From: Eledone cirrhosa | Lineage: Eukaryota | Direction of reading: 5' to 3' | Length of the DNA: 64,000 bases | NCBI GenBank assembly: GCA_964016885.1 | Contig: OZ024743.1 | Coordinates: 25,916,001 to 25,980,000 of the forward strand | Part shown: positions 28,183-39,131 of the stretch, piece by piece | How the letters are laid out: the number at the start of each line of letters is the position of its first letter | How positions within the stretch are numbered: position 1 is the first letter of the stretch | Position numbers and translations under genes: made by a program | The notes under the pieces: model-generated | The model's database searches: none | Seen by the model: the letters and a program-made list of their open reading frames with translations, nothing else | What the model was told of the DNA's origin: nothing

Positions 28183-29666
28183 ATTAGAAAGATCGAGTAT
28201 CGAAAAATCGGCGCACGAGTTCACGAAAAACGAAATTCGATATGAGCGGCAGAGGGCTCAATAATTCAGATGAATCAGAGCTATAACTATCGTTAAAATA
28301 CCGTCACATATAGAACAAGTCTACAATCAACCATACGATTTAAAATCGATAAAGGAAGATTCGGGCCAAACAGATAAAAAATATCAATAAAACAATACGT
28401 CAATAATTTAAATGAATGTAAAATCATACCCGGACCCACTAGAAAGGTGTTAAATCTAGCTTCATGGGTTTCTGTAAATCCTTAGACTGTACTCTATCAG
28501 CTCACATATAAATATAAAAGCCTACTAGAATAAGTGGAACGGAGTTTACGTTGTCAACGAGTTTTTTCCTGGCGGCAGAGGAGTCAACTAGCGGTGAAAA
28601 ACGCACATGGCATTAGACAAGGGAGATGACCCCTATATCCGCGAAAACAATTCGAGTGAATGTGGAAATACACATATCGAATTAGAGTGCTCAATAGACA
28701 TGTTAAAATAAAACAAAAGCTATTCATCACTCAATAGAATCGACAAAAAATGAGCAATAAAATTAACTGGTGGATAGCTAAGTCCAGAGCTAAATATATT
28801 AGAAAGATCGAGTATCGAAAAATCGGCGCACGAGTTCACGAAAAACGAAATTCGATATGAGCGGCAGAGGGCTCAATAATTCAGATGAATCAGAGCTATA
28901 ACTATCGTTAAAATACCGTCACATATAGAACAAGTCTACAATCAACCATACGATTTAAAATCGATAAAGGAAGATTCGGGCCAAACAGATAAAAAATATC
29001 AATAAAACAATACGTCAATAATTTAAATGAATGTAAAATCATACCCGGACCCACTAGAAAGGTGTTAAATCTAGCTTCATGGGTTTCTGTAAATCCTTAG
29101 ACTGTACTCTATCAGCTCACATATAAATATAAAAGCCTACTAGAATAAGTGGAACGGAGTTTACGTTGTCAACGAGTTTTTTCCTGGCGGCAGAGGAGTC
29201 AACTAGCGGTGAAAAACGCACATGGCATTAGACAAGGGAGATGACCCCTATATCCGCGAAAACAATTCGAGTGAATGTGGAAATACACATATCGAATTAG
29301 AGTGCTCAATAGACATGTTAAAATAAAACAAAAGCTATTCATCACTCAATAGAATCGACAAAAAATGAGCAATAAAATTAACTGGTGGATAGCTAAGTCC
29401 AGAGCTAAATATATTAGAAAGATCGAGTATCGAAAAATCGGCGCACGAGTTCACGAAAAACGAAATTCGATATGAGCGGCAGAGGGCTCAATAATTCAGA
29501 TGAATCAGAGCTATAACTATCGTTAAAATACCGTCACATATAGAACAAGTCTACAATCAACCATACGATTTAAAATCGATAAAGGAAGATTCGGGCCAAA
29601 CAGATAAAAAATATCAATAAAACAATACGTCAATAATTTAAATGAATGTAAAATCAATGTAAAATC
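28183..29666 (-). mobile_element. Tandem array of about 2.4 copies of a 615-bp unit in (TA)n
   Basis: gatcgagtat recurs at 28191, 28806 and 29421; copies look identical. Confidence 0.95.
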
Positions 29667-30252
29667 ATATATATATATATATATATATTTTGTTATACTT
29701 GGAGAGGGTCATATTGTTGTAATAATATTGCCAGAATTAATATCAGAACACACTCACTGTTTGGTTGGTTTTCGTTTCTGTATCTTTTATATCAGTTAAT
29801 TTATTCGGTCCTCAATGTTTACCATTGACTGACCAACGGTCAAATAATACAGATATAATATAGACACAAACACATATATATTGTCTAACAAAGTTCTTTC
29901 ATTGCATATCTGCAACATCGTCAGTGGTGCTATTATTATGTTCCTCCTGTTGTATTGTATATCTACGCCATCTTTATTTAATGTTTATTTATTTATTTAT
30001 TTATTTTGTCTTCTCTGCGCATGCGTTTGCGTGTGTATAGTGTTTGGTGTGTGTTCGCGTTTGGGTGACTGTGTTTTGGTTATTGTATTCTATCTTAGTT
30101 TACTAGTGTGTGTTTATATGCGTTTGTTATTATTGTGCTTGTGTATATATTTATTTATTTATTTATATTTCTCTTAGGTCAGTATTGTTTGTTTGGGTGT
30201 TGTTGTTACTCCATTAATTTTTTCTGTTCGCAAAACAAATATATATATATAT

Positions 30253-30753
30253 AACGAAGGAAATATGGTAAGGAACTAGGTGGACCATAACGCACCAGAG
30301 TACTCAATACTTAAGGTAGTAGAGTGGGTAATAGGAAAATGTTAAAGACCCCGACGGCAGAGCTCAAGCCGTTTCGACGTCTATTTCTGGACCTGCCTTT
30401 GTGTAGGTGGAGTTCAGGCTGCTCCTGATAAGTGTGTGGTATCTGTCAGCGTTGACGAAATAGAGGTCTCCAGTTTTGTTCGAATGCACCAGGATGTCGT
30501 TGATGCTTTCTTACTCCGTTATTTTGCTACAGGGTTGTAGGAATCGGTTGTCTGAGTTTGAATTTTATACCCTTGACCAGGTTGAAAAGGTCGTTCTCGA
30601 GGGGTGAGAGCAGAGGGTTCGGTGGGGGAGATTTGTAGGTATTGAATCCGAATCTCTCTGTCGAAGTCCTGGTTGTCGCGGTATCTATCGTAGGTCCAGA
30701 AATAGCCGTCGAAACGGCTTGAGCTCTGCCGTCGGGGTCTTGAACATTTTCCT
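30253..30753. mobile_element. (TA)n-flanked element with inverted arms; family also at 26631-26697 and 42441-42637
   Basis: 30329-30393 is inverted at 30692-30754; same left end aacgaaggaaat.tggtaaggaac as 42441. Confidence 0.8.
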
Positions 30754-30939
30754 ATATATATATATATATATATATATATATATATATATATATATATATA
30801 TATATATATATATATATATATAGTGTTGGTGTGCGGATGTGTGTGCAAGGGGGAGTGCCCTAAATAATCCAGAAATACAGAATTTCGTCTTATTTCTGAT
30901 ATGACATTTCCAAATCTATATATTCTTTCCCGCCACTAA

Positions 30940-36629: not shown

Positions 36630-37075
36630 AAAACTTTTTGCTATGGGATTAGAAAGGATTCAGAAAAAGAAGTAGAGGCATCAAGGATCAATTACTGATC
36701 GACAAAATGGTAGTCAAGGATTGTAAGAGGAGATTAATATCATTGGGAGTTGCCTGGATAGATTATCGCTAGACGTATGATATATGGACTCACAGGTCGA
36801 TTGAAAAATCAAGGAAAAGGTTTGGAGTGTCAATAAATATGAGACAGTTCATTAAAGAGAGTATGAAACAGTGGAATATTGAGCTAATCGCTGGCAATAA
36901 AGTTAGGAAATGTTAAGATAAGACGTGGGATATTCCAAGGAGACAGTTTGTCGCCATTATTGTTTGCAGTGGCGATCATTCCACTGACACTGATGTTGAG
37001 AAAGATAAAGATATTGTATAAACGAAAGAAAGAGGATCAATCACCTTCTCTCCATGGACGATTTTAAGTTGTTTC
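36630..37075 (+). pseudogene. R4/Dong-like (RLE-clade) LINE RT fragment, absent from the ORF track
   Basis: Manual translation: [50 protein letters not shown]. Confidence 0.75.
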
Positions 37076-37263
37076 TCTCTATATAGATGACGGCGAAGTC
37101 ATAACTTTCTGTCTATCTTCCTCTCTTTATCACCTCGAAAACATGCGGCGTTCCCTTTTCTCTATATATGTACATATCTCTCGCTTGGCGCTCCCCCTCT
37201 ATATATATAAATTAAGCGGAGGAACGGACAGAGAGCGCTCTTATTATAATATATATATATATA

Positions 37264-39131
37264 CGATACTCGATCTTTCTAATATATTTAGCTCTGGACA
37301 TAGCTATCCACCAGTTAATTTTATTGCTCATTTTTTGTCGATTCTATTGAGTGATGAATAGCTTTTGTTTTATTTTAACATGTCTATTGAGCACTCTAAT
37401 TCGATATGTGTATTTCCACATTCACTCGAATTGTTTTCGCGGATATAGGGGTCATCTCCCTTGTCTAATGCCATGTGCGTTTTTCACTGGTAGTTGACTC
37501 CTCTGCCGCCAGGAAAAAACTCGTTGATAACGTAAACCTCCGTTCCACTTGCTCTAGTAGGCTTTTATATTTATATGTGAGCTGATAGAGTACAGTCTAA
37601 GGATTTACAGAAACCCATGAAGCTAGATTTAACACCTTTCTAGTGGGTCCGGGTATGATTTTACATTCATTTAAATTATTGACGTATTGTTTTATTGATA
37701 TTTTTTATCTGTTTGGCCCGAATCTTCCTTTATCGATTTTAAATCGTATGGTTGATTGTAGACTTGTTCTATATGTGACGGTATTTTAACGATAGTTATA
37801 GCTCTGATTCATCTGAATTATTGAGCCCTCTGCCGCTCATATCGAATTTCGTTTATCGTGAACTCGTGCGCCGATTTTTCGATACTCGATCTTTCTAATA
37901 TATTTAGCTCTGGACATAGCTATCCACCAGTTAATTTTATTGCTCATTTTTTGTCGATTCTATTGAGTGATGAATAGCTTTTGTTTTATTTTAACATGTC
38001 TATTGAGCACTCTAATTCGATATGTGTATTTCCACATTCACTCGAATTGTTTTCGCGGATATAGGGGTCATCTCCCTTGTCTAATGCCATGTGCGTTTTT
38101 CACTGGTAGTTGACTCCTCTGCCGCCAGGAAAAAACTCGTTGATAACGTAAACCTCCGTTCCACTTGCTCTAGTAGGCTTTTATATTTATATGTGAGCTG
38201 ATAGAGTACAGTCTAAGGATTTACAGAAACCCATGAAGCTAGATTTAACACCTTTCTAGTGGGTCCGGGTATGATTTTACATTCATTTAAATTATTGACG
38301 TATTGTTTTATTGATATTTTTTATCTGTTTGGCCCGAATCTTCCTTTATCGATTTTAAATCGTATGGTTGATTGTAGACTTGTTCTATATGTGACGGTAT
38401 TTTAACGATAGTTATAGCTCTGATTCATCTGAATTATTGAGCCCTCTGCCGCTCATATCGAATTTCGTTTATCGTGAACTCGTGCGCCGATTTTTCGATA
38501 CTCGATCTTTCTAATATATTTAGCTCTGGACATAGCTATCCACCAGTTAATTTTATTGCTCATTTTTTGTCGATTCTATTGAGTGATGAATAGCTTTTGT
38601 TTTATTTTAACATGTCTATTGAGCACTCTAATTCGATATGTGTATTTCCACATTCACTCGAATTGTTTTCGCGGATATAGGGGTCATCTCCCTTGTCTAA
38701 TGCCATGTGCGTTTTTCACTGGTAGTTGACTCCTCTGCCGCCAGGAAAAAACTCGTTGATAACGTAAACCTCCGTTCCACTTGCTCTAGTAGGCTTTTAT
38801 ATTTATATGTGAGCTGATAGAGTACAGTCTAAGGATTTACAGAAACCCATGAAGCTAGATTTAACACCTTTCTAGTGAGTCCGGGTATGATTTTACATTC
38901 ATTTAAATTATTGACGTATTGTTTTATTGATATTTTTTATCTGTTTGGCCCGAATCTTCCTTTATCGATTTTAAATCGTATGGTTGATTGTAGACTTGTT
39001 CTATATGTGACGGTATTTTAACGATAGTTATAGCTCTGATTCATCTGAATTATTGAGCCCTCTGCCGCTCATATCGAATTTCGTTTATCGTGAACTCGTG
39101 CGCCGATTTTTCGATACTCGATCTTTCTAAT
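37264..39131 (+). mobile_element. Tandem array of 3 copies plus a short piece of a 616-bp unit in (TA)n; same family as 28183, opposite orientation
   Basis: cgatctttct recurs at 37271, 37887, 38503 and 39119. Confidence 0.95.

Follow-up and report, generated by a model that had tools for sequence, protein, structure and literature searches.

A Predicted Hammerhead Repeat Family of 616 nt in Eledone cirrhosa, Probably Copied from Circular RNA into (TA)n Tracts

Introduction

A 64,000-nt stretch of the Eledone cirrhosa genome (assembly GCA_964016885.1, contig OZ024743.1, positions 25,916,001 to 25,980,000 of the forward strand), referred to here as the window and numbered from its first letter, contains two tandem arrays of a 615/616-nt unit, homogeneous within each array and different between the two. 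The question raised by this locus is how such arrays arise. The analysis points to a young family of non-coding 616-nt units with a predicted hammerhead ribozyme, probably copied from RNA into (TA)n by the reverse transcriptase (RT) and endonuclease of a Hydra-clade Penelope-like element (PLE), in repeated passes around a circular monomer. Rolling-circle reverse transcription of retrozyme circles by PLE enzymes has been proposed but not demonstrated (PMC4209133, PMC7229834, 10.64898/2026.07.22.740005), and the 2026 preprint calls the mechanism open (10.64898/2026.07.22.740005); these and later citations refer to parts of the sources.

Structure of the Two Arrays

The initial annotation had reported both arrays, and they were recovered with slightly corrected coordinates. 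Positions within the repeat are given relative to a reference unit U (window 37283–37898, plus strand, numbered U1–616).

28114–28183, no strand: (TA)n tract joined to the fixed end of array 1
28184–29656, minus: array 1, two 615-nt units and a 243-nt 5'-truncated partial unit (U374–616), 2.4 units
29657–29667, minus: 11-nt sequence duplication of U374–384 at the variable (5') junction of array 1
29668–29688, no strand: (TA)n tract at the variable end of array 1
37264–39130, plus: array 2, a 19-nt partial unit and three 616-nt units, 3.0 units
37899–37916, plus: tandem sequence directly 3' of the fixed end, TATATTTAGCTC with a predicted UAGCU/AGCUA hairpin; its first 12 nt are those found after the end of Hydra family E
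39131–39274, no strand: (TA)n tract joined to the fixed end of array 2

As the initial annotation stated, the arrays have a common terminus and differ at the other end: both stop at U616, where GATCTTTCTAA is followed by (TA)n, and their 5' ends are different. The partial unit of array 1 begins at U374, 6 nt 3' of the predicted ribozyme cut. Eight fixed differences, including the four variants named earlier, separate array 1 from array 2, and one difference (G>A at 38878) occurs within array 2. The units abut directly and have a GC content of about 35%. Their longest stop-free run is 62 aa, so they lack the RT and GIY-YIG open reading frame (ORF) of an autonomous PLE. No long internal repeat resembling a long terminal repeat (LTR) was found in the unit; the primer-binding site and polypurine tract were not searched for separately. 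A short, non-coding, dispersed repeat arranged head to tail is what is expected of a non-LTR retrozyme.

A Predicted Hammerhead Ribozyme in Each Unit

Each unit very probably carries a type I hammerhead ribozyme with a variant U3-A8 core and long stems II and III, and active cleavage of this motif is likely. The fold, drawn by inspection on the plus strand of U, comprises stem I (U237–241/U368–372), the core UUGAUAA (U242–248), an extra C249, stem II (U250–326), an extra A327, GAAA, stem III (U331–366) and GUC (U365–367), with the predicted cut after C367. The following copies are present in the window:

28428–28562, minus: predicted type I hammerhead with core UUGACAA, predicted cut directly after GUC (after 28433)
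29043–29177, minus: predicted type I hammerhead, predicted cut after 29048
37519–37654, plus: predicted type I hammerhead in the first unit of array 2, predicted cut after C367 (37649)
38135–38270, plus: predicted hammerhead in the second unit of array 2, predicted cut after 38265
38751–38886, plus: hammerhead copy in the third unit of array 2, with G>A at 38878 breaking one stem III pair

Among 69 distinct units the core reads UUGANAA, with T, G or C at N7, A8 in 61 units and G8 in 8. The core pattern has 3,922 matches in the genome, sister families included, and none in the control. In a set of 17 diverged copies (mean column identity 72%), RNAalifold recovered stems I, II and III without a supplied structure. 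Across 15 named pairs in these copies 95% of cells pair and 15 cells have two-sided changes, mostly in stem II; the pairing score was reached by 0 of 500 shuffles, and slid-partner controls gave 17–46%. A relaxed type I scan, written after the motif was known, found it on the plus strand of the unit only (0 of 400 shuffles) and also detected two unrelated sites in the window. The hammerhead is the predicted minimum-energy fold of the isolated motif. For the full circle it is predicted to lie 3.2 kcal/mol above the minimum, with the core strand paired to U394–402, a pairing that would help keep circles intact.

Several points weigh against this reading. The search pattern itself imposed the core, stem III and the innermost pairs of stems I and II, so these carry no evidential weight, and the shuffle control can be beaten by related sequences. 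Some copies are U3-G8. The extra A before GAAA has no description in the parts of PMC4209133 and of the other retrozyme and PLE literature covered here, and other retrozymes are reported often not to cleave (8 of 9 dimers; 10.64898/2026.07.22.740005). On the other hand, PLE hammerheads with U3-A8 cores, and with a base between positions 9 and 10.1, are reported in PMC4209133, the only paper returned by a literature search for activity data on such cores. The fold had escaped the initial annotation; it supports the retrozyme reading, cleavage being a prediction.

Rfam gave no meaningful match in the units at gathering and E-value thresholds. Ribozymes on both polarities, characteristic of viroid-like agents, were not found, the type I scan being positive on the plus strand and other classes being covered through Rfam alone. 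An earlier candidate core, CUGAUAGA at U300–307, was rejected, as it has no stem I and sits inside stem II. A short-stem pattern gave 20 matches against 10 in the control. Separately, loci L281, L290, L291 and L296 contain, near position 1500, short elements between microsatellites with a UUGANAA core, an extra base and a short stem II.

Genomic Distribution, Ends and Target

The 3.0-Gb genome was searched with exact patterns, their reversed forms serving as controls. The fixed end joined to (TA)n was matched 742 times and the head-to-tail junction 1,414 times, against none for the reversed patterns; the family thus has at least 742 genomic insertions. Of these, 106 were read: 38 best-hit arrays together with the two of the window, 60 of the first 70 fixed ends on contig C1, and 6 further arrays.

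U616 is the end in all 40 best-hit arrays and in 13 of the first 14 arrays obtained with the junction pattern, a pattern that leaves the end free; the remaining array adjoins an N run. Of 95 scored insertions, 55 of them selected on the fixed end, 93 have TATATA after that end and 76 have TA on the 5' side. The 5' ends fall at scattered positions, and insertion length ranges from 42 nt to 26.6 units. The comparison of end points over genomic arrays that the initial annotation had called for reveals a conserved terminus. No empty-site joint was seen in contigs of public sequencing runs.

Sister families of about 600 nt have the same ribozyme and layout (loci L124, L176–L179, L182–L184, L186 and L189–L201). 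In 18 of 22 sister-family loci the TA tract begins 184–242 nt after the cut, a layout as in U. These families terminate in CTAC or TTTG, and one sister group, with a different sequence after the fixed end, may use another partner.

One fixed and one variable end would also result from Helitron-like DNA rolling-circle transposition of a non-autonomous element, and the fixed end CTAA fits a CTRR terminus. Hallmarks of non-autonomous Helitrons and Helentrons are subterminal inverted repeats or a conserved CTRR end with a hairpin. The unit, however, has no subterminal inverted repeat, its two inverted pairs both being internal, and the sister families end differently. Further arguments against this mode, which is regarded as extremely improbable, are the strand-specific covarying ribozyme fold, the hotspot of stops at the cut of this fold, the junction with (TA)n and the sequence match with a Hydra end (see below).

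First-Pass Stops near the Predicted Cut

Ten of 28 sub-unit insertions start at U379–391, 12–24 nt 3' of the predicted cut, compared with 1.3 expected in U368–395 (hotspot scan, p 1e-4). They are 226–238 nt long, and weighting for TA microhomology changes nothing. Stop rates were calculated on 69 of the first 70 C1 ends, one array with an unknown 5' end being kept separate. Stops in U368–395 occurred in 10 of 63 first passes and in 2 of 174 later passes (p 4e-5), with a rate of 6.2/kb as compared with 0.46–0.70/kb beside this interval and 1.1/kb in the second pass. A structural stall would be expected again at every pass, but run-off from a linear monomer that had been cut would not; the first-pass excess is therefore in line with run-off from cleaved linear RNA, and the long arrays with a circle. 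With priming at U616, at most 249 nt can be copied from a cleaved monomer; longer copies therefore need a circle, an uncut multimer or a jump.

Run-off is called into question by several points. The second pass alone does not differ significantly from the first (1/32 vs 10/63, p 0.09). The stop rate drops with length, which makes the later passes a selected sample. Since the hotspot is 12–24 nt short of the cut, a first-pass stall at the ribozyme fold is a possible alternative.

Haplotypes within and between Arrays

Homogeneity was analyzed in 45 arrays with at least two full units (274 units), and haplotypes in 78 arrays (53 haplotypes); a variant is called private relative to the 106 loci read out of at least 742. 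In the 45 arrays, units of the same array differ by 1.0 on average and units of different arrays by 12.0, in agreement with the contrast drawn in the initial annotation. A single unit of 274 is mosaic, i.e., differs from its own array at two or more family-polymorphic sites, compared with 80% of random unit pairs, and even this unit reflects alignment ambiguity in an A run.

The variants of the two window arrays had been considered private to each array, which proved incorrect: each of the eight is present in 5–40 of 77 other arrays, as expected of subfamily markers, and the haplotypes of arrays 1 and 2 are identical to those of L092 and L031, respectively. On their own, the two window arrays are no demonstration of rolling-circle copying, as what separates them is a set of subfamily markers also present elsewhere. 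The proposal that an array is copied from a single monomer template finds its support in the genome-wide pattern of one haplotype per array.

The strongest competitor to the circle retains the same PLE partner and derives arrays from linear read-through transcripts of existing arrays. It accounts for the 22 of 45 multi-unit arrays whose exact majority haplotype is common to another array, and homogeneous source arrays can pass on homogeneity by inheritance, a point that weighs against the circle. Starts near the cut, such as U368 in L071, U374 in array 1 and altogether 6 of 40 best-hit arrays in U368–395 (1.8 expected), would likewise be produced by partly cleaved multimers. Read-through cannot, however, fix a new variant in every unit, and the 45 arrays comprise 30 haplotypes, with 11 arrays having a variant fixed in every unit and absent from the other sampled arrays. 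Single-unit variants are seldom inherited (3 of 71 recur in a second array). Long transcripts would moreover be cut if the ribozyme of each unit worked, whereas arrays of up to 26.6 units exist. Read-through as the main source is thus unlikely.

Template jumping without a covalent circle, from the 5' end of a cleaved linear monomer to its own 3' end or to a like monomer, would explain the stop hotspot as failed jumps, and the 11-nt duplication at the 5' junction of array 1 shows re-priming near the cut. Jumping between molecules would yield mosaics, which are practically absent; scars would also be expected, but the lists of unit variants contain no cluster of insertions or deletions at U367/368. 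This route is considered quite improbable.

Another possibility is insertion of roughly a single unit, after which duplication and conversion at the DNA level would account for most of the growth of an array. Thirteen subset-variant patterns, several in adjacent units, were found in 7 of 30 arrays with at least three units, and therefore not every array is one untouched event, as the initial annotation had assumed for each. Variants common to adjacent units in L067, L082, L088, L090 and L128 and the long tail of array lengths are consistent with such growth. The remaining 23 of 30 arrays show no subset pattern, the truncated 5' unit also carries 13 of the 17 private variants that could be tested, and more than one unit is already present in 41 of 69 consecutive insertions, which makes DNA-level growth a very unlikely main route. 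As a separate observation, one variant recurs in non-adjacent units of long arrays (5/13 in L032, 5/13 in L208 and 5/26 in L088); conversion, mixed alleles in the assembly and repeated misreading of one template base are candidate readings.

Near-identical units and the array end adjoining an N run could raise suspicion of collapsed or over-polished repeats. Distinct haplotypes and flanks at 106 loci, the retention of single-unit variants within arrays, and contigs from public runs that cross the junction leave hardly any room for such an assembly artefact. These contigs, whose kind is unrecorded, cross the unit junction, and one spans the 5' join of array 2. No RNA run was listed as containing the unit. 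Two observations from run X6 were not used. Its 645-nt contig (615 + 30) over array 1 would be the same for a circle and a tandem array, and its missing cover on high-copy flanks covered by X3, X5 and X7 proves nothing, the kind of run being unrecorded. Taken with the first-pass stops, the haplotype pattern makes the circle the probable main source of multimers.

Candidate Penelope-Like Partners

The Hydra clade inserts into (TA)n (PMC8557442), and the Poseidon PLE initiates internally at a stem-loop and nicks AT-rich DNA in vitro (PMC11167929). Insertion of the unit by a PLE is very likely, the enzyme is likely of the Hydra clade, and family E within it is a serious candidate, though an even call at best.

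Four young Hydra families contain natural open frames of considerable length: 713 aa in A, 821 in B, 832 in C and 790–812 in E. Assignment to the clade was by motif only, against section 11 of PMC8557442. Five natural open frames contain the RWK-like, DKT, CxCX5C, CxxC and CxH motifs together with GIY-YIG at the C terminus, and insertion is into (TA)n; one A copy reads NKT, and the GIY-YIG regular expression missed C. Pfam and PDB searches gave no match for the PLE proteins of the candidate partner families. One copy is present in the window:

19748–23670, minus: broken Hydra-clade PLE, family A, autonomous type, with ORF pieces 20929–22491 and 22589–23005, an inverted 5' piece and (TA)n at both ends

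This copy is a possible partner, not the best one. The (TA)n-joined end of family E continues, in tandem context, with TATATTTAGCTC, identical to U1–12 (12-nt in-register match, post hoc p ~7e-4). GCTC is present at +7 to +10 in 6 of 7 Hydra ends, in four of them within a predicted GCUC/GAGC hairpin before the start codon, and U has a predicted hairpin at the matching position. Copies of family E are 96–99% alike, which suggests an age range similar to that of the arrays.

There are also points that tell against this assignment. Extended homology of U to Hydra families A, B, C and E was not found, and two 3' regions of family E gave no hammerhead in a relaxed scan; the 12-nt match is missing from sister family 2, and Naiad elements also favour (TA)n (PMC8557442). 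Scattered k-mers common to U and the terminal regions of Hydra A, B and C are not above shuffles (p 0.12–1.0), and families A, B, C and E and old fragments offered no parent terminal repeat for U. The comparison covers families A, B, C and E; further PLE families exist in the genome.

Other observations concern the Hydra elements themselves. Two or three alternative 3' ends joined to (TA)n occur in family A, resembling the PLE 'tail' (window 19748–23670, L130–L158). A first look gave 87,143 candidates, which suggests a very large Hydra load in the genome. About 250 nt before the ORF of a family B element (L240:4390–4460), a minimal hammerhead-like CTGATGA ... GAAA with palindromic TGCGCA and TA was noted by eye.

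Comparison with Known Systems

Like animal non-LTR retrozymes (Cervera and de la Pena, 2020, PMC7229834; Li et al., 10.64898/2026.07.22.740005), the unit is non-coding, low in GC, tandem and dispersed, with a type I hammerhead per unit; copies range from partial to long multimers in a genome with PLEs, and a circular RNA intermediate has been proposed for such elements. On these sequence features the family belongs with animal non-LTR retrozymes; its cleavage, circular RNA and partner enzyme are inferred. It differs from them in its U3-A8 core, the additional base that flanks stem II on either side, a stem II domain of 77 nt, long stem III, strict (TA)n-joined fixed end and minimal likeness to its partner; the PLE terminal-repeat homology that Li et al. 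(10.64898/2026.07.22.740005) describe for retrozymes was not found in extended form against families A, B, C and E. The unit was earlier judged longer than typical metazoan retrozymes. This holds against the 170–400 nt reported for invertebrates (PMC7229834), but 616 nt is not unusual within the 51–972 bp of animal consensus sequences (10.64898/2026.07.22.740005).

With Hydra-clade PLEs (Craig et al., 2021, PMC8557442) the family shares (TA)n insertion, a fixed 3' end, a variable 5' end and tandem copies, and with Hydra family E the 12 nt after the end. It has no ORF, and the hammerheads of Hydra elements among the rows of the PMC8557442 supplement covered here have CUGA cores and short stems. 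The U3-A8 core and the unpaired base after A9 recall the hammerheads of Schistosoma Cercyon PLEs, but these are minimal, lack helix III and are thought to act as dimers (PMC4209133), whereas the unit has a full helix III and is predicted to fold as a monomer. MRC1 and other non-autonomous Chlamys elements are also PLE dependants with multicopy head-to-tail insertions; in contrast to the unit, their 3' ends are similar to those of the autonomous partners, and canonical hammerheads are mostly absent from the clade (PMC8557442).

No earlier description of the 616-nt family or of the end-point analysis was found in literature searches, with subscription papers, Repbase/Dfam and preprint supplements outside their scope. 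The supplements of the preprint and of PMC7229834 may list related families.

Other Features of the Window

A second (TA)n-flanked tandem, at 44456–45480, consists of 2.1 copies of 496 bp with 3 differences between units and ends in TATTTTAA followed by (TA)n. It contains GAAA and CTGATGA motifs, gives no match in the type I scan, has a relative in locus L290 and is probably another PLE-dependent family. Just 5' of array 2, at 36700–37070, a degenerate stretch was read by eye, presumably a fragment resembling a non-LTR reverse transcriptase. An unbroken 1,154-aa frame at 2822–6286 (minus), with endonuclease, RVT_1 and zf-RVT matches, resembles an L1/Tx1-like ORF2 and has a 399-aa frame upstream. 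Positions 1–2536 are a minisatellite of about 67 copies of 38 bp.

Proposed Cycle and Its Significance

In the proposed cycle, arrays would be transcribed and cut between GUC and C (U367/368) to monomers, part of which would be ligated into circles. The PLE enzyme would then nick (TA)n and prime internally at U616, where the RNA continues with UAUAU before a small hairpin, giving the fixed end that is observed. From a linear monomer, copying would run off near U368 and account for the observed excess of 226–238-nt insertions; around a circle it would continue and produce the arrays that are observed, which are homogeneous, reach 26.6 units and have their 5' ends at random positions. A minority of arrays would be reworked later at the DNA level, a step for which the subset variants provide partial evidence.

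A more speculative combined view, doubtful as it stands, is that the genome records both halves of the retrozyme cycle, run-off from cut linear monomers and rolling copies, and that the circle parasitises Hydra enzymes by mimicking a short start signal rather than by descent from a terminal repeat. The signal would be TA-rich bases followed by a GCUC hairpin, common to all four Hydra families.

If true, the system would be a minimal, programmable means of writing circular RNA as tandem DNA, aimed at (TA)n. Precise predictions follow from the family. They concern the RNA that would serve as template, cleavage at U367/368, priming at U616, (TA)n as the target and, as candidate enzyme, a named family whose natural open frames are long. 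The hammerhead variant escapes Rfam and has thousands of pattern matches in one genome; such elements are therefore probably undercounted.

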